Source of the DNA: a virus
Lineage: Duplodnaviria > Heunggongvirae > Uroviricota > Caudoviricetes
DNA length: 42,917 nucleotides
Reading direction: 5' to 3' (one strand)
Virus record (IMG/VR): IMGVR_UViG_2718218102_000002
The notes below the pieces were generated by a model that saw only the letters and a program-made list of their open reading frames with translations, made no database searches and was not told where the DNA came from. Shown one piece after another: positions 2,217 through 22,257 of the stretch. The translations under genes and the position numbers were made by a program. Positions within the stretch are counted from its first letter, which is position 1. Every line of letters begins with the position of its first letter.

Positions 2217-5056
2217 TATGCAAGCCTCACAATATAGTTAAATGCGATGTTTTTGACGGTGTTTTCCGCGTTACCAGCAGCGTTAACGGTGATGGTGTGT
2301 CCATGTGAGCCAATCGCAACAGAGTGCGTATGAGCACCAATACCGACAGTATGCGCGTGTGCACCCGCAGATGCTGCTGTGCCGGACAGTGAGTGTGTAT
2401 GGTTTCCTTCTGAAGATGATTTACCTACCCATTGGGAGGTGCCACTGGTTAATGAGCCACTGATACCAACCTGATTAGTCCCGCTAACTTGAGTACTCCC
2501 TGCCGGAAACATTCCAGTAGGTTGACTCCCGCTATTCGTTCTGGGCCCAGTCTGACTATGTTGGTGGGCCCCAGCTGAACTTGTAGAGCCGCTCAGACTG
2601 TGCGTATGCGCCCCGGTGTTATTCGTGGATTTAGTGCCGTAATCAAACGACGATGTGGTTTTCGTACCCAAATCCGTACTGGATGCGCTGGCGCTGTGGG
2701 TGTGCGATTTAATGCCGTCCTGTTCCTGAGACAATACGGTACGACCACTGGCGGGCTTGCCCTTAATCGTCCAGCCACGCATATCAGGGATCACGCCTGA
2801 CGGATAAGCGACTGCAAGTTTCGGGTAGGCAGATTTGTCAAAAGTCTGCCCCTGCATCAGGGCATAACCAGACGGAACGGTATCCGATGGCCACGGGATT
2901 GGTGCGCCAGGCGGATAAAACTGCTCTGATGGCGTATAGAGTGAATAAACTGTACCGTCCGTTAACCCTTCCGGCTTATTAGCAGAATATGCTGGTGACG
3001 TATGAATCGTCACGCTGGCATTACTGGTATAATCCCATTGAATATTTACACCAGTCGCATAATTTCCGATTGCAACGTAAATATCGTAAGTATCACCAGA
3101 TGTATTGACCCAGGCAAAATTTGTAAACCCTGCCGAAGTGCGCTGCCATAAAGCACCAGTAATCCCCTTCGGGTTACCATTACCTGCACGCAAAACAAGT
3201 TCAGATATACCTGCCTGTTGAGGTGAACCGACGTTATATCCAGCCCCACCAATCAACGTAATTGAAACAACAGAACTCGCCTGCGGCATGGTTACCGTTG
3301 CTAATTTGAACCAACCAGCACCACCGCTAAATGACATAGTTGTTGAGTTAAGCGTACCAATATCTTTCGGTGTCAGTGTTATATCCGCTGAAAGCGCCTT
3401 ACCATTCACCTTACGGGCAGAAGGTACCCGACCATTCGCATTGTCATTAGCTGCTTTCACTGCTTTCGGTGTCGCAGCAAGCGTTTCAGATGCGCTGTTG
3501 GTTGCACTACTGAGCTGGACAATTCCTTTTTGTGCTGTCGTAGCGTCCTGAGCGGTATATTTCCCGCTAGCCAGGTCATACGCGGCCTTAACGGCTTTTG
3601 GCGTTGCCGCCAGTGACTCGGAAGTGCTGTTAGTCGCACTGCTGAGCTGTACTATCCCCTTTTTCGTCGTGCTCGCATCCTCAAGCGCCACGGCGGATGC
3701 AATATCCTCTGCCCGTTTTGCTGCTGTCTCGGCGCGCGTTGCCGCGGATTCCGCCGTACTTTTGCTCTGAGCTGCCGCCGTCGCACTGCCAGCTGCCTCT
3801 GTCGCCTTCGTGGATGCCGTCGTGGCGCTGCCCTTCGCTGCTGACGCTTGTCTGGTCGCCTCATCTTTTGAAGCAGACGCCGATGATGCCGATGACGCCG
3901 CCGAACTGGCTGACGATGCGGCAGCCGTTTTTGAGGATTCTGCGCTGGTTTCCGACGCTTTCGCGTTCGTTTCGGATGTCTTCGCTGCGGAAGCTGACCT
4001 CGCTGCTGCCGTGGCCTGTTCAGTGGCTTCGCCAGCCTTCGTTGTGGCTGTTGAAGCGGATGATGCGGCGCTTTCTGCCGACTTTCCGGCAGCGGTGGCA
4101 CTGGCTGAGGCCTGCCCGGCATTTGTTGACGCGGCGCTGGCAGATGAGGCAGCCGCTGTTTTTGAGTCTGCTGCTGCGGAGGCACTCTGTGCTGCTGCCG
4201 TCTCAGAAGACTTAGCGTTCGTCTCGGACGTTTTTGCCGCCTTCGCGGAATTGCCTGCCGCTGTTGCCGAGGAGGCTGCACTACTGGCGCTCGAGGCTGC
4301 GCTCGTTTCTGATGATTTTGCCGCCTCTTTTGAAGCCGACGCATCTCTGGCTGAGGTGGCAGCTTCTGACGCTTTCGTGGTCGCGGTGGATGCAGAAGTG
4401 GCGGCTGATTGTTGTGACGCTGAAGCATTCGTTTCTGACGTTTTCGCCGCACCGGCACTGGTGGCCGCCGCGCTTTTTGAGGACTCTGCAGCGGCAGCAC
4501 TTTTTGATGCTTCAGTGGCCTTTGTTGATGCCGTTACTGCGCTGGAAGACGCTGACTGAGCCGACGACGCGGCCTGTCCGGCTGACGTGCTGGCTGCGCG
4601 TGCGGAGTCCGCAGCATCAGTCGCATGGGTTGCCGCCTCACGGGCTGATGTGCTGGCATCGCTGGCTGACTTCTTCGCGGCTGCCGTGTTCTGTGCCACC
4701 GCGGACGCGTTACGCGCCACCTCTTCCACCATCAGCTCAAAACGGCGCAGTGCCTCCGGACGGACATCATCCTCAGTCATGGCACCAAGAAAATCATTCA
4801 GCGTACCGGGTTGAGAATCTTCATACACGGTGATGGTCCCGGCATGTGACGGCGGGAATCCCTCCACCAACAGAATAACGCTGTACTGACCGTACTCAAC
4901 GTCCATACTGTAACGCCCGGCTTCATCCGGATTTTCAGATGCCAGCGTGTTCACCACCACCGTGGTGCTGTTACGTTTTGCTTTCAGCTGGATTGTGCAG
5001 TTCTGTACCGGTTTTCCTGTGCCGTCTTTCAGTACACCTGAAATCTTTACTGCCAT
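2216..5056 (-). CDS. stf: Side tail fiber protein Stf, with Ala/Ser-rich repeat core and His-rich C-terminal repeats
   Basis: N-terminus [20 protein letters not shown] as recalled for lambda Stf. The track start at 5062 is a GTG; the ATG at 5056 is preferred. Duplicated [12 protein letters not shown]...[11 protein letters not shown] motif and HTHS/AHxH repeats near the C-terminus. Confidence 0.9.
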
Positions 5057-5065
5057 ATTCACCCC

Positions 5066-5096
5066 ACAAAAAAGCCCGCCTGAAACGGCGGGCTGT
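5066..5096 (-). terminator. Intrinsic terminator downstream of lom
   Basis: On the minus strand: gcccgcc-gtttca-ggcgggc followed by tttttt, in the lom-stf gap. Confidence 0.55.
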
Positions 5097-5120
5097 CATA
5101 ACACTGTGTTACCTGGCTAA

Positions 5121-5720
5121 TCAGAACTTATAACCGACACCCACGATGAAACCGTCAGTGCGCCAGTCACCACTGCCGGAACCTTCATAAGCAATATCAA
5201 TGGCCACGGATTCGGTCGGGTTAAACTGCACGCCAGCCCCCCACGCCAGAGACGTGTTGCTGTGGCGACCGTCATCACTTCCGGTCAGCACATCATGCGT
5301 TTTCCCCTTGTTGTCAGTTACGCGGAGATAATCCCCGGAAAAAGTCGACACACGGCTGTAAGCCACGCCCGCCATCGCATACGCACTGAACCATTCATTC
5401 ACGCGCACAGAGGGCCCCGCCATTACGCTGAACCAGCGGTTACGAACGGAATCTTCATGCCAGCGGGTATCGCTGTAACGGGTAAGCTGGCGATTCTTGT
5501 CTCCTGCATAGCTGAAAGACGTCACCATCCCCAGTGTGTCCGTAAACTCATAACGGTATTTCACGTTAATCCCGTTCAGATCATCGCTGCCGGGAACGTT
5601 CGTCGAGACATGAAGATACCCCGCGCTCAGCGTGGACTGATGTTCAGACGCCCATGCAGGCGTACCGGATACGGCCAGACAAATGGCTGCGGACAAAATG
5701 GCGGCATAAAGTTTACGCAT
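5121..5720 (-). CDS. lom: Outer membrane protein Lom (Ail/Lom family)
   Basis: 199 aa with signal peptide (…AVSGTPAWA) and C-terminal GYKF beta-barrel ending; sits between J and stf as in lambda. Confidence 0.9.
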
Positions 5721-5743
5721 AATTACCTCTCGCTTTTCTGCAA

Positions 5744-5769
5744 TAAAAAAGGCGTCATTTCTGACGCCC
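5744..5769 (-). terminator. Putative intrinsic terminator downstream of J
   Basis: Minus strand: ggcgtca-gaaa-tgacgcc followed by ttttttatt. Confidence 0.5.
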
Positions 5770-5786
5770 GTTATGGGTTATAAAAT

Positions 5787-9188
<3,402 letters not shown>

Positions 9189-17496: not shown

Positions 17497-18525
17497 TTAT
17501 TTCACCTGTACCACCACAAACTCATCCGGGTCCGGCAACACCATCAGCGGCGCGGACTGCGTCATGGTAAATTCACGGGCGGGATCCCCTACCGTCAGCC
17601 AGTGTTTCGGATAACGGGAAGAGGCCACCACACCTTCGGACAACGCCTGAGCATCCTGAATGGCACCGTAACAACGGATCCCATCTGCAGCAGTATTCCC
17701 CAGAACCAGCATGCCATCTGGAAGATAACGTTTTTCGATACCGTCTTCTGCTATATAAGACGTTTTCGCCACCACAATGGCCAGATCGCCGTAATACCCC
17801 TTGAAGGACACCACTGCGCCCAGATCTTTCACTGCCGTTTCGAGTTGAGAATTTGAACCGCGACGGGTATCCAGTTTTTCGCGGAACAGCTTAAAACCAT
17901 TCAGAAGACGCCAGACGGTACCGTCCATAATGGCAATATTCACAAGACCGCTGGCCTGGTCGCAGTAGAGGTCAATATCATGTGTAGGATCGAACGTGTC
18001 ACGATCCTGTTTTGACCACTCCTTACCACTACCCTGAGTGATGTTATTCTTCGTCGACCTGCCAAAATCGACCTCAATTTTCTCGAACTGGTCTCCTTCC
18101 ATGGTGTATTTGCCATACAACACAGCATTTACCGCCTGCATTTCTTCCACCTGGACAATCGCGTGCTCTTCCTGTTTGAGGTTATCGGTAATGATACGCA
18201 GACGGCGGTAAGCCGGATCATTCAGTTGAGATGGATCTTCACCAGGAAGGCGCTCAACCGCCTGCTGGTAATTAAATTCGTGTTTCGGCTTGACGTAGCC
18301 CGGACGCAACACGCGGGTTTCACCACCACGATGACGCAGCACTTTTCCTTCAACAACCGGGGAGACATAGGCCGCCACCGGCGTTTTTCCGGTAATTTTG
18401 TCCAGCATCACCTCTTCGGTATGGAAATTCACCGTACGGCGGAAAAACAGTTCCAGAAACAGCGCACGAAATTTAACTTTTTGTTCGGTATAACCGAGTA
18501 ACTGGCGGGTCGTAAACAATCCCAT
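17497..18525 (-). CDS. E: Major capsid protein E
   Basis: 342 aa; shares many blocks with lambda E as recalled (e.g. PGYVKPKHE, KLDTRRGSNS, TGDPAREFTM). Confidence 0.9.
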   Translation of the reverse strand: MGLFTTRQLLGYTEQKVKFRALFLELFFRRTVNFHTEEVMLDKITGKTPVAAYVSPVVEGKVLRHRGGETRVLRPGYVKPKHEFNYQQAVERLPGEDPSQLNDPAYRRLRIITDNLKQEEHAIVQVEEMQAVNAVLYGKYTMEGDQFEKIEVDFGRSTKNNITQGSGKEWSKQDRDTFDPTHDIDLYCDQASGLVNIAIMDGTVWRLLNGFKLFREKLDTRRGSNSQLETAVKDLGAVVSFKGYYGDLAIVVAKTSYIAEDGIEKRYLPDGMLVLGNTAADGIRCYGAIQDAQALSEGVVASSRYPKHWLTVGDPAREFTMTQSAPLMVLPDPDEFVVVQVK

Positions 18526-18582: not shown

Positions 18583-18930
18583 TTACGGCAGCGCCGCGTG
18601 ACTCAGGGCACTGCCAGCAAAGGCGTTGGCCTTTTTGTGTTCATCCACACTTTCAGGCCAGTGGATTGCCTCCGTCGCAAAGGTTCCCGACTTGTAATAC
18701 GTCAGCGCCGTCTCTGTGCCTTCAAGCGGCAGTACCAGTATGCCAACCGCACTACCGGCTTTCTGTCCGTCCCAGACCACCAGTTTCCCGGTGGCTTCAT
18801 CCAGCATCAGGGGCGTCAGAGCCGGTGTTGCAGAAGAAATCCCGCTGCTGCCTGTGGCGGTATGAGCCGGATCATTACCGGCAAAAATACGTACTTCCGC
18901 ACGCTGTTCAGTGATGGTTTTCGTCACCAT
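18583..18930 (-). CDS. D: Head decoration protein D
   Basis: 115 aa with the NDPAHTAT, TPLMLD and YKSGTF motifs recalled from lambda gpD. Confidence 0.85.
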   Translation of the reverse strand: MVTKTITEQRAEVRIFAGNDPAHTATGSSGISSATPALTPLMLDEATGKLVVWDGQKAGSAVGILVLPLEGTETALTYYKSGTFATEAIHWPESVDEHKKANAFAGSALSHAALP

Positions 18931-18966: not shown

Positions 18967-20472
18967 TCATGGCATGGCCATGAGCATTTTCACGTCCGCA
19001 TCACCGTCTGCTGACGTCTGTGGCACGCCACCCTGTACCGCTGCCGGTGAATGGTTCGCCATGAAATGTTCAAACATGGCGGTTGTGGATGCAGAGACCG
19101 GTTCTGCCTTACCTGATCCCGCAGCCAGCACAGCCCGGGCGCACTCCACAGTTATTCCCGGGCAGGCAGCCAGCTGTTCAGCCTGCACCTCAGCCCCTTT
19201 TGCCTCATCCAGTGCCATGATCTGATCACGGAGTGATGGTCCGGCATCCGCCTGCGGTGAAGCAGCCAGGATCGGGCGGGCTTTTTCCACCGTCATCTCC
19301 GGCATCGCCGCCAGCGTTGCCGCCAGTTGTTCACGACCGTTCGCTTCTTCACACGCCATAATGCGATCGGCTTCACTCTGCGTGGATGCCACCGGCTGCT
19401 GCGGTGCCGCCGCGGCCAGAATCGCCCGGGCCTGTTCAACGCTCATGCCCTGTTGTCCTGCCAGCATCGTGGCAAGCTGTTCACGTCCTTTCGCTTCCTG
19501 GCATGTCAGGATCCCCATCACTCGCTGGTTCTCCTGCGCGGCGGCTTCCGTTGCAGTTAATTGCGGCATAGTGCCTCCTCTGACATTACTGTTCAGCGCC
19601 GTGGCCATCACACTGATGGCATCCGACGCATTGATTAATTCATCCGCCAGCCCGGCCTCAATGCCGGACTGACCTTCAAAAACAGCGGCCTCTGTTCCCG
19701 TGACTGCATCAACAGACAGACCGGTAAACATCGCCACTTTTTCGGCAAACATCCGGCGCGCCGCATCAATCCGCTGCTGCATGTCCTGGCGAACCTCTGC
19801 CGGCAACGCTTCAAACTGATTGCCATCCACCTTGTGCGCCCCTGAGTAAATCAGCGTGATATCCACACCGGCCTGCGCCAGATGACCGGCATAGCTGACA
19901 TGGCTCATCATCACGCCAATGGAACCGATACGGGATGTCTGGGTAACCAGCCGTCGGGAGCAGGCCGACGCCAGCAGCATGGCTGCAGAACAGGCCGTGT
20001 CATTGCACAGTGCCCAGACCGGCTTCTGCTGACGGAGGCGGTAAATCATGTCAGCGCAGTCAAACGCGCCGGCGGCCTGCCCGCCCGGACTGTCAATGTC
20101 CAGCAGTACGCCCCGCACCTGGCTATCCGCCATTGCCTGCTGAAGACAGGAGACAATACCGTCATAGCCTGTCATTCCGGAAAATGGCCGCATACCACCC
20201 AGCCGGTGCACCAGCGTGCCGGTCACCGGCAGTACAGCAATACCGTTCACCACCCTGTAAACACGGGCCGGTCGTTTACCTCCGGCCATGTACTCGTCCG
20301 TTTCAGCCAGCATTCCGAGAGCATCAAACTGTACCTGCTGTTGTGGTACCGAAAGACTTGCTGCCCCCATCTCGCGCCCGAGCGCGCAAAAGAAAACCCG
20401 CGCATAGGCGGGCTCCAGAAGCAGCGGTTCATTGAATGCTGCGGCAATAATGTGTGAAAGATTACGTCTCAC
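18967..20472 (-). CDS. C: Head maturation protease C (S49/ClpP-like) with nested scaffold (Nu3-like) C-terminal region
   Basis: 501 aa. N-terminal two-thirds resembles lambda C; the C-terminal part carries three tandem ~48-aa repeats where lambda has one. Confidence 0.85.
   Translation of the reverse strand: MRRNLSHIIAAAFNEPLLLEPAYARVFFCALGREMGAASLSVPQQQVQFDALGMLAETDEYMAGGKRPARVYRVVNGIAVLPVTGTLVHRLGGMRPFSGMTGYDGIVSCLQQAMADSQVRGVLLDIDSPGGQAAGAFDCADMIYRLRQQKPVWALCNDTACSAAMLLASACSRRLVTQTSRIGSIGVMMSHVSYAGHLAQAGVDITLIYSGAHKVDGNQFEALPAEVRQDMQQRIDAARRMFAEKVAMFTGLSVDAVTGTEAAVFEGQSGIEAGLADELINASDAISVMATALNSNVRGGTMPQLTATEAAAQENQRVMGILTCQEAKGREQLATMLAGQQGMSVEQARAILAAAAPQQPVASTQSEADRIMACEEANGREQLAATLAAMPEMTVEKARPILAASPQADAGPSLRDQIMALDEAKGAEVQAEQLAACPGITVECARAVLAAGSGKAEPVSASTTAMFEHFMANHSPAAVQGGVPQTSADGDADVKMLMAMP
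19114..19524 (-). repeat. Three imperfect tandem ~145-bp repeats inside the C/Nu3 coding region
   Basis: Repeated DNA blocks (e.g. ccagttgttcacgaccgttcgcttc / caagctgttcacgtcctttcgcttc), corresponding to protein repeats at about aa 317-357, 367-406 and 415-453. Confidence 0.7.
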
Positions 20473-22054
20473 GTGGTGTTGTCTCCTCTTCCGGCCTACG
20501 ACTCTCCGCTATCTGCTGCTGATACGCCTGCGCTATCCACACCGGACGTGAGAGTCCGGCTTTTTGCCGCTCAGCAGATTCCCTGACCTGCTGGCGGAAA
20601 ATGTCCTGATAATCCTCGCCCATCAGCGCCAGCTCTTTCTCATACGTGCTCAGTCCGGCCTCAATGCGCATCACTGATTCCTGGACTTCCTTGAGCCCGT
20701 CAATGGCCATTCTTCCGGCACCAATCCACTCTGCCCGTGACCAGGCTGATCGCGCCTGATAAAAATCAAAACGTGCCCGTGGCGGACGAATAATCCCCCG
20801 AAGAAGTGCCTCTTCCAGCCAGCAGGAAAACATCTGCGTGGCCAGCCGGGCCGCAATAAATTTTCGCCGCCCCATAAAATAGCGCCACGACTCATTGGCG
20901 GAGGCGCGGGCACTTGAGTAACTGACCTTCGAGTAATCACGGGACAACTGTTCGTAGGAAACGCCAAGACCGGCGGCGATATACCGCAGCAGCGCCTGTT
21001 CAAGCGCAGAAAATCCATTGTCTGAATCCTGCGCAGTCTGTAGTTTCAGATCATCACCAGGGAAAAGGTGCGGAATTTTGACACCGCCCAGTGTCACGTT
21101 ATTCGTGTCATACCAGCTGGAAAACTTCTCCAGAATATTAATAAGCGGATTATCCTTCTGCTCCTGTGGCGCGCCGGCGATATATTCAAAGGCCTTTTCG
21201 GTATCAAGTTCACTTTCAATCGTCGCTGCATACATCGCCTTCACTATGGCCGACTGAAGCTGTGTTGCCTGCAGGGAATCGAGCATCTTCAGCCGTTCCA
21301 TGACGCTGTAAAACTGATTAGCCCCACGGGTCTGCCCGTCCTCCACCGGCTCGAAAATATGCAGCATGGCCGGACGCCCGGTGGGAAGTTCACGCGGGAT
21401 CCGTTCCCATCGTCCACTACCAGAGAACGGAAAATCATCCTCACAGATATGGTACGCGACGGCACGGCCATATCGATCGACCTCCACACCGGCCCGCAGA
21501 AAACGGTTCCCCATACCGTGTCCAGGCGTGTCCACCCGTTTCGGACTCACGGCTTTAAAACGCGTACGGAATAACTGCGTGGTTTCCGTATCCCAGACCG
21601 GCTGCACAAAGATTTCGCCGTTAAACGCATGAACGCCCACACCTTCACGGATAAATTCCGTGAACGTGCGTTTTCCTTCCACGTCGATCTCGCCAAACAT
21701 CCCTTCGGCGTATTCCGACCAGGCCGCCTCCACCTCATCGACAAAGCTTTTTGCTGCGGTCTCCCGCATCCCCAGCCAGCGCCAGTTCGGACGGTAGCTG
21801 ATCAGAAACATATGCCCGACAATGTGATCCTTATGCAGAGCCACCGCATTAGCCGCTATTCCGTTATTGCGCACCAGATCATCTGCCCGGGCATTCCCCA
21901 GACGCAACGCGGGCAGCAGGGCCGCATCGGCACTCTGCGCCGGTGGCAACCACTCAGCCATTTGCCCGCCAAATCCTGCACCGCCCCCGTTGTAGCTGAG
22001 ACTCTCACGAAGCGGAACGCCGTTCACATCAATCAGGACAGGCGTTCGTTTCAT
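20462..22054 (-). CDS. B: Portal protein B
   Basis: Conserved portal blocks (e.g. VEDGQTRGAN, SAIVKAMYAATIESELDT). Start set at MKRTPV, which forms an ATGA overlap with the W stop. Confidence 0.9.
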   Translation of the reverse strand: MKRTPVLIDVNGVPLRESLSYNGGGAGFGGQMAEWLPPAQSADAALLPALRLGNARADDLVRNNGIAANAVALHKDHIVGHMFLISYRPNWRWLGMRETAAKSFVDEVEAAWSEYAEGMFGEIDVEGKRTFTEFIREGVGVHAFNGEIFVQPVWDTETTQLFRTRFKAVSPKRVDTPGHGMGNRFLRAGVEVDRYGRAVAYHICEDDFPFSGSGRWERIPRELPTGRPAMLHIFEPVEDGQTRGANQFYSVMERLKMLDSLQATQLQSAIVKAMYAATIESELDTEKAFEYIAGAPQEQKDNPLINILEKFSSWYDTNNVTLGGVKIPHLFPGDDLKLQTAQDSDNGFSALEQALLRYIAAGLGVSYEQLSRDYSKVSYSSARASANESWRYFMGRRKFIAARLATQMFSCWLEEALLRGIIRPPRARFDFYQARSAWSRAEWIGAGRMAIDGLKEVQESVMRIEAGLSTYEKELALMGEDYQDIFRQQVRESAERQKAGLSRPVWIAQAYQQQIAESRRPEEETTPRET

Positions 22055-22257
22055 AATTTCACTCCCAGCGGACGACGGCGACACCGGGTTGTCCCCAGTA
22101 CCGACTCCGCATCATTGATCGCCCGGTTAAGCTCATCCAGAGAAGCCGCCGTATATTCAATTCTGCGACCATCTTTCTGGACAGACACCACCCGTTTACC
22201 GGTTAATAAATCAAGGCGCGCCTGACGCAGCGCCTGCAGTTCAGCGACTGTAACCAT
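22051..22257 (-). CDS. W: Head-tail connector protein W
   Basis: 68 aa as in lambda W; contains TGKRVVSVQKDGRRIE. Confidence 0.85.
   Translation of the reverse strand: MVTVAELQALRQARLDLLTGKRVVSVQKDGRRIEYTAASLDELNRAINDAESVLGTTRCRRRPLGVKL

Follow-up and report, generated by a model that had tools for sequence, protein, structure and literature searches.

In phage lambda, the scaffolding protein Nu3 has E, C, and Nu3 itself as interaction partners, and incorporation of the portal protein B depends on it (PMC3224144). In phage 21, the GenBank record titled 'Bacteriophage 21 head gene operon' (M81255) lists three repeat_regions within gene 6, the 'Tri1 box', 'Tri box', and 'Tri3 box', each annotated as "function unknown; putative". 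Here, we describe the gene of this type in IMGVR_UViG_2718218102_000002, a Caudoviricetes record of 42,917 nucleotides (nt), below called the window; coordinates count from its first letter. A preliminary description had noted, at 19114–19524, three tandem copies of a ~48 amino acid (aa) module in the Nu3-equivalent, C-terminal part of a C-type gene, as opposed to one copy in lambda, and these points are borne out. The triplication is, however, already known: its annotation in phage 21 dates from the early 1990s, and the prior knowledge rests on that GenBank entry. When mapped to the window, the Tri boxes coincide with the three units defined here by a hidden Markov model (HMM).

Over the whole gene, the closest relatives are phages 4A7, Lambda_4C10, 1W, and 3W, with 99.8% nucleotide identity. 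Phage 21 gene 5 (M81255, OL657228) shows 99.0% identity and has the same three repeats, the same gene 6 start with its ribosome-binding site (RBS), and the same flanking genes; phage 21 gp5 differs from the window protein in 8 amino acids, by point substitutions only, e.g., V429 for A, I440 for M, and C444 for S in unit 3. The Gifsy-1 gpC homologue (STM2605.Gifsy1) has three modules in the same order, each most similar to its positional counterpart in the window protein, although the nucleotide identity is ~71%, and unit 3 carries GRE, unlike GAE in the window. Lambda gpC/Nu3, N15 gp5/gp6, and phi80 gpC share with the window the gene position, the S49 domain, the module, the C-terminal tail, and an internal start preceded by a Shine–Dalgarno (SD) sequence, the lambda-type protease part being 60% identical to the window protein at the amino acid level; in contrast to the latter, they have one module, with a longer (~50 aa) low-complexity segment ahead of it.

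Three units in a phage 21-type C/Nu3 gene

The unit HMM gives three matches in the 501-aa protein of the window and one, at aa 359–400, in lambda gpC, hence the comparison with lambda leaves the claim of a triplication standing. Since a BLASTP self-comparison yielded the full-length diagonal only, the units were aligned one by one and their scores compared with those of shuffled sequences. Pairwise local alignments show 44–60% identity (z = 10.6–15.3), and the observed pairwise scores were reached by none of 2000 composition-preserving shuffles. The unit limits are aa 313–366 (U1), 367–413 (U2), and 414–463 (U3), together covering 19084–19536. The modules proper are ~38–40 aa each and are joined by short, flexible linkers; successive cores begin at intervals of 50 and 47 aa, in agreement with the ~48-aa period described earlier. 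The peptide quoted in that description, ILTCQEAKGREQLATMLAGQQGMSVEQARAILAAAAP, is found exactly at aa 321–357.

The module consensus is I(L/M)xCxEAKGRExLAxxLAxxPGMTVEQAKxxLAAAP. Unit 3 is the most diverged, with GAE at the place where at least 90% of the family units have GRE; in unit 3 of Gifsy-1 and of other Salmonella alleles, GRE is retained. The tail (FxxFM ... LLxxxP) follows the array in all alleles and is conserved among orthologues.

As for the gene as a whole, the Pfam domain Peptidase_S49 (PF01343) covers aa 146–293 (E = 1.5e-34), the solved SppA proteases 3rst and 4kwb match the protein with E ~3e-16, and phrog_53 ('head maturation protease') of the PHROGs database matches it over the full length; in addition, PHROG families named head scaffolding or capsid assembly protein match the repeat units, in 3–4 stretches. 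On one side, the gene is adjoined by a portal-like open reading frame (ORF) at 20462–22084; on the other side are a D/shp-like decoration ORF (18583–18930) and an E-like major capsid ORF (17497–18525), all on the minus strand. The resulting order of portal, C, decoration, and major capsid genes is the B-C/Nu3-D-E arrangement of lambda and matches the annotation of phage 21. The S49 domain, the gene position, a nested gene with an RBS, and the Tri boxes together identify the 501-aa ORF, by homology, as the phage 21-type allele of the lambda C/Nu3 head-assembly gene, encoding a predicted S49 prohead protease.

The nested gene 6 is annotated with its own RBS in both phage 21 records, M81255 and OL657228. 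In the window, its start context is AGGAGGCACTATG, with AGGAGG placed 4 nt before the ATG of Met302. This methionine aligns with Met309 of lambda gpC (context AGGAGGGCGAATG) and with the annotated start of N15 gene 6, where the same SD-preceded arrangement is observed. We propose that the scaffolding region is also translated separately from Met302, giving gp6 (Table 1).

The lambda RefSeq record NC_001416 (locus 4300–6200) places the nu3 coding sequence at 5132–5737, that is, from residue 239 of gpC, where no SD sequence is present upstream (CTGCAGTCCCGGATG). At Met309 (~5342 in the record), AGGAGG is found 5 nt upstream, and this position aligns with the gene 6 starts of phage 21 and of N15 (137 aa). 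Given the lack of an SD sequence at residue 239, and both an SD sequence and aligned starts at Met309, the RefSeq start of lambda nu3 looks too far upstream.

Table 1. Features of the C/Nu3-type locus in the window
Feature	Position	Strand	Basis
Gene 5, lambda C homologue, 501 aa (S49 prohead protease and scaffold region)	18967..20472	minus	ORF, Pfam, PHROGs, nucleotide identity
Nested in-frame gene 6, Nu3 homologue, predicted scaffolding protein, 200 aa, start Met302	18967..19569	minus	Phage 21 annotation and start context
Shine–Dalgarno sequence AGGAGG for the internal gene 6 start	19574..19579	minus	Read from the sequence; matches the RBS annotated in M81255 and OL657228
Unit 1 core, aa 321–358, phage 21 'Tri1 box'	19399..19512	minus	HMM, 74 bits; M81255 repeat_region is 19399–19502
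Unit 2 core, aa 371–407, phage 21 'Tri box'	19252..19362	minus	HMM, 81 bits; M81255 repeat_region is exactly 19252–19362
Unit 3 core, aa 418–454, phage 21 'Tri3 box'	19111..19221	minus	HMM, 75 bits; M81255 repeat_region is 19108–19221
C-terminal tail after the array (F-x-x-F-M helix, acidic stretch, LMAMP end)	18970..19110	minus	Homologous to the lambda gpC/Nu3 tail; AlphaFold2 low confidence

Beyond this locus, collinearity with phage 21, 4A7, Lambda_4C10, and related genomes extends over the left 25 kb of the window, which corresponds to their left arm read in the opposite direction. It breaks off at ~24875, where the left end (base 1) of the phage 21, 4A7, and Lambda_4C10 genomes is reached, and the cos site or genome terminus of these relatives therefore maps to this point; the window itself runs on past it, as a prophage or a permuted record would. 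In 4C10, 4A7, 1W, and 3W, transposase genes (three annotated as 'mobile element protein') lie under the matched region, and the match comes in three pieces with ~80% coverage. Antisense ORFs across the repeat array were considered and found to be without support.

Age of the array and variation in copy number

Tandem Repeats Finder reports no tandem DNA repeat at the array, and there are no direct repeats of at least 20 nt in 19050–19580; short repeat families from a general repeat search were rejected as chance-level 12–22-mers. When aligned by codons, the unit DNAs are 56–69% identical, and the longest exact run shared by any two of them is 8 nt, so that 'imperfect', as the DNA repeats had been called, is, if anything, an understatement. 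The identity between units is 65–84% at codon positions 1 and 2, and 32–43% at position 3, the mark of an old duplication that selection at the protein level has maintained. The earlier suggestion of a recombination hotspot is not supported for this array, since units whose longest shared run is 8 nt make a poor substrate for homologous recombination.

The core motif positions are invariant in all three units across orthologues of 45–97% identity, the exception being GAE in unit 3 of the phage 21 type. The identity of units 1, 2, and 3 to the units at the same position in Gifsy-1/Salmonella alleles is 0.80, 0.80, and 0.60–0.63, respectively (for unit 2 of Gifsy-1 itself, 80%), while the identity to sister units is 0.51–0.60. 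As each unit is closer to its positional counterpart in Gifsy-1/Salmonella than to its sisters, the triplication predates the split between the E. coli and Salmonella head modules. Judged from the codon-position pattern and this positional orthology, the triplication is ancient, with each copy under purifying selection, and the array is not a slippage artefact, in line with the preliminary description, which had argued this from the imperfect DNA repeats.

To compare copy numbers, units in named phages were counted with the HMM on their loci. One unit is found in lambda, N15, and phi80, and three units in phage 21 and Salmonella Gifsy-1. Four units are found in a separate E. coli lineage (P0027; contig ABNWJB010000046.1, L004:410-922), present in 104 of 5,426 complete E. 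coli genomes. Here, the units are 74–91% identical to each other, and a DNA tandem repeat is visible, with a period of 138 nt and 76–78% identity. Most database members of this four-unit cluster are listed as 'partial' S49 peptidases, as might be expected if short-read contigs ended within the repeat.

Two units are seen in in-register deletion variants among the relatives of 19084–19536: P0022 has a hybrid unit that begins as U1 and ends as U2 (junction between ...EQAR and PILAAS...), and U2 is lost, wholly or partly, in P0018 and P0016. The protein search with gp6 as the query returned mainly fragments of close relatives and served to find such variants, not as a census. The rare in-register two-unit variants and the separate four-unit lineage show that the copy number changes over evolutionary time. 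At the same time, across the phages with one, three, and four units, E is 59–83% and D is 53–77% identical; both are clear homologues, hence the copy number is not tied to a different family of capsid proteins.

The prevalence of the three-unit allele was assessed with the 600-nt gp6 region (at least 80% coverage and at least 90% identity) in the same 5,426 complete E. coli genomes. It is present in 1,863 of them, and single genomes carry as many as five copies.

The module as a family and its predicted fold

A 39-position profile, built from 22 units, was run against 1.84 billion representative proteins (clusters at 50% identity); the matching proteins numbered 1,222 at E <= 1e-3, 94 at E <= 1e-10, and 5 at E <= 1e-30. 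Among the best 150 of the 1,222 matches, one unit is seen in 136 proteins, two in 11, and three in 3. As scores add over units, proteins with several units should gather at the top of the list, and arrays of at least three units appear confined to a handful of the 50%-identity clusters.

The module consistently sits at the C-terminal end that S49 prohead proteases and Nu3-like scaffolds have in common; in the long proteins among the best 150 matches, it lies at a median distance of 51 aa before the C-terminus. Peptidase_S49 is present in 61 of the 116 scanned members, while the others are short and have no Pfam domain, which is consistent with separately called Nu3-like ORFs or fragments. Two units are also found in distant, non-enterobacterial S49 protease/scaffold proteins: P0135 (469 aa, 'ClpP class serine protease' in JGI), P0105, P0146, and P0151, one of which has a PTPPTPPTPP linker. 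These independent two-unit proteins in unrelated lineages indicate that the module has been duplicated more than once.

In an annotated phage collection, the unit occurs in 173 records, including phages of Escherichia, Proteus, Vibrio, Aeromonas, Burkholderia, Stenotrophomonas, Clavibacter, and others; among the 60 of these 173 matches listed, nearly all units fall under head or prohead protease genes. Neither Pfam nor NCBIfam has a model covering the unit. With at least 1,222 clusters at 50% identity, no such model, and no solved structure, the module would seem to represent an undescribed domain family.

The AlphaFold2 (AF2) model of gp6 (200 aa, alignment of 15 sequences) has three separately folded helical modules with a predicted local distance difference test (pLDDT) value of ~80 each, and with linkers and tail of low confidence, resembling "beads on a string"; the predicted template modelling score (pTM) is 0.28. 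For a single unit with the preceding helix (63 aa, alignment of 80 sequences), pLDDT is 90.3 and pTM is 0.73, with three helices at gp6 residues 6–21, 30–37, and 44–53, and with pLDDT of ~96 for the helices of unit 1. Each unit is thus modelled as an independent three-helix mini-domain. A fold search with the single-unit model yielded only generic helical-bundle matches and no specific solved relative; the search with the whole gp6 model was discarded as meaningless due to the beads-on-a-string character of the latter.

Possible roles of the repeated module

Small helical elements of scaffolding proteins in other phages bind the N-arm of the coat protein (PMC11922011). The C-terminal helix-turn-helix coat-binding domain of P22 gp8 and, by analogy, that of phi29 gp7 are likewise small helical elements near the scaffold C-terminus. 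However, no sequence or fold match of the module to the solved P22 (or phi29) scaffold domain was found, and the module differs from these domains in having three helices, a ~45-aa tail after it, and a repeated arrangement; the likeness serves as a working analogy and not as an assignment to the same family. The module is probably a contact element that recruits the scaffold and the protease into the assembling procapsid; as the two share the C-terminus, one module could recruit both. The contact partner might be the major capsid protein, other scaffold chains, or both, and three copies per chain would make the scaffold multivalent. Overall, we consider the best explanation, and on balance a probable one, to be a phage 21-type C/Nu3 allele with a tripled recruitment module and hence a multivalent scaffold; its identity and anatomy follow from the comparisons above, while we infer the binding partner and the copy-number effect. 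An effect of the repeat expansion on capsid assembly, raised in the preliminary description, is a plausible hypothesis.

The main competing possibility, which we regard as less likely though deserving attention, is that the modules mediate self-association of scaffold chains, while the contact with the capsid is made by the C-terminal tail; three copies would then replace or strengthen the oligomerisation that the single-unit Nu3 achieves between chains. Lambda Nu3 indeed self-interacts and forms dimers (PMC3224144), the tail after the array is conserved in all alleles, and the segment preceding the single unit of lambda is 50 aa, compared to ~12 aa in the 21 type, so that the architectures of lambda and of the 21 type differ beyond the copy number. 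Nevertheless, the units do not pack on one another in the AF2 model of gp6, although this is weak evidence. Alternatively, the modules might bind the portal (gp4/B), nucleating an initiator complex of portal, protease, and scaffold, as the incorporation of B depends on Nu3, and B-C-Nu3 complexes have been reported (PMC3224144, Table 2); since scaffold copies far exceed portal copies, and nothing ties the module specifically to the portal, this seems improbable to us.

Slightly less credible still is that one unit matters and the extra ones are a tolerated spacer with no function of their own. The two-unit in-register deletion alleles in databases (P0022, P0018, and P0016), the loss of the conserved Arg in unit 3, and the assembly of homologous capsids by single-unit phages agree with a spacer, but the core motif is kept in all three units across orthologues despite saturated synonymous sites, the three-unit state is retained with positional orthology between E. 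coli and Salmonella phages, and it is the three-unit form that is found in the 1,863 genomes. Finally, a role of the DNA itself, whether as a recombination hotspot or as a regulatory (e.g., CII-binding) site, is already disfavoured, and we give it very little credence. Copy-number variants do exist, and OL657228 has two 'CII binding site' annotations (ttgynnnnnnttgy) inside gene 6, on the opposite strand, at locus 2409–2422 and 2643–2656 (corresponding to ~19551–19564 and ~19317–19330 of the window). However, the latter appear to be degenerate pattern matches only and were rejected, no DNA repeat is detectable, and conservation follows the protein, being far higher at codon positions 1 and 2 than at position 3.

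Returning to the recruitment module, a tentative extension is that its copy number (one in lambda, N15, and phi80; three in phage 21 and Gifsy-1; four in the other E. coli lineage; and occasionally two) is a tunable valency parameter of lambda-type scaffolds. If so, a three-module chain might bridge several capsid subunits, e.g., around a local threefold, which would change the scaffold stoichiometry or the assembly fidelity and would compensate for the short N-terminal segment of the 21 type.

As a discovery, the triplication carries little weight, as it has stood for about three decades in the GenBank record of phage 21 and belongs to one of the commonest head-gene alleles in E. coli prophages. 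Added here are the copy-number series of one, two, three, and four units, the positional orthology of the units with Gifsy-1, the confident three-helix model of the unit, and the description of the module as a widespread domain lacking a domain model. Closely related T=7 lambdoid heads that use one, two, three, or four copies of a mini-domain constitute a natural experiment in scaffold design, and the series gives simple genetic access to the question of how procapsids recruit lambda-type scaffolds and proteases.
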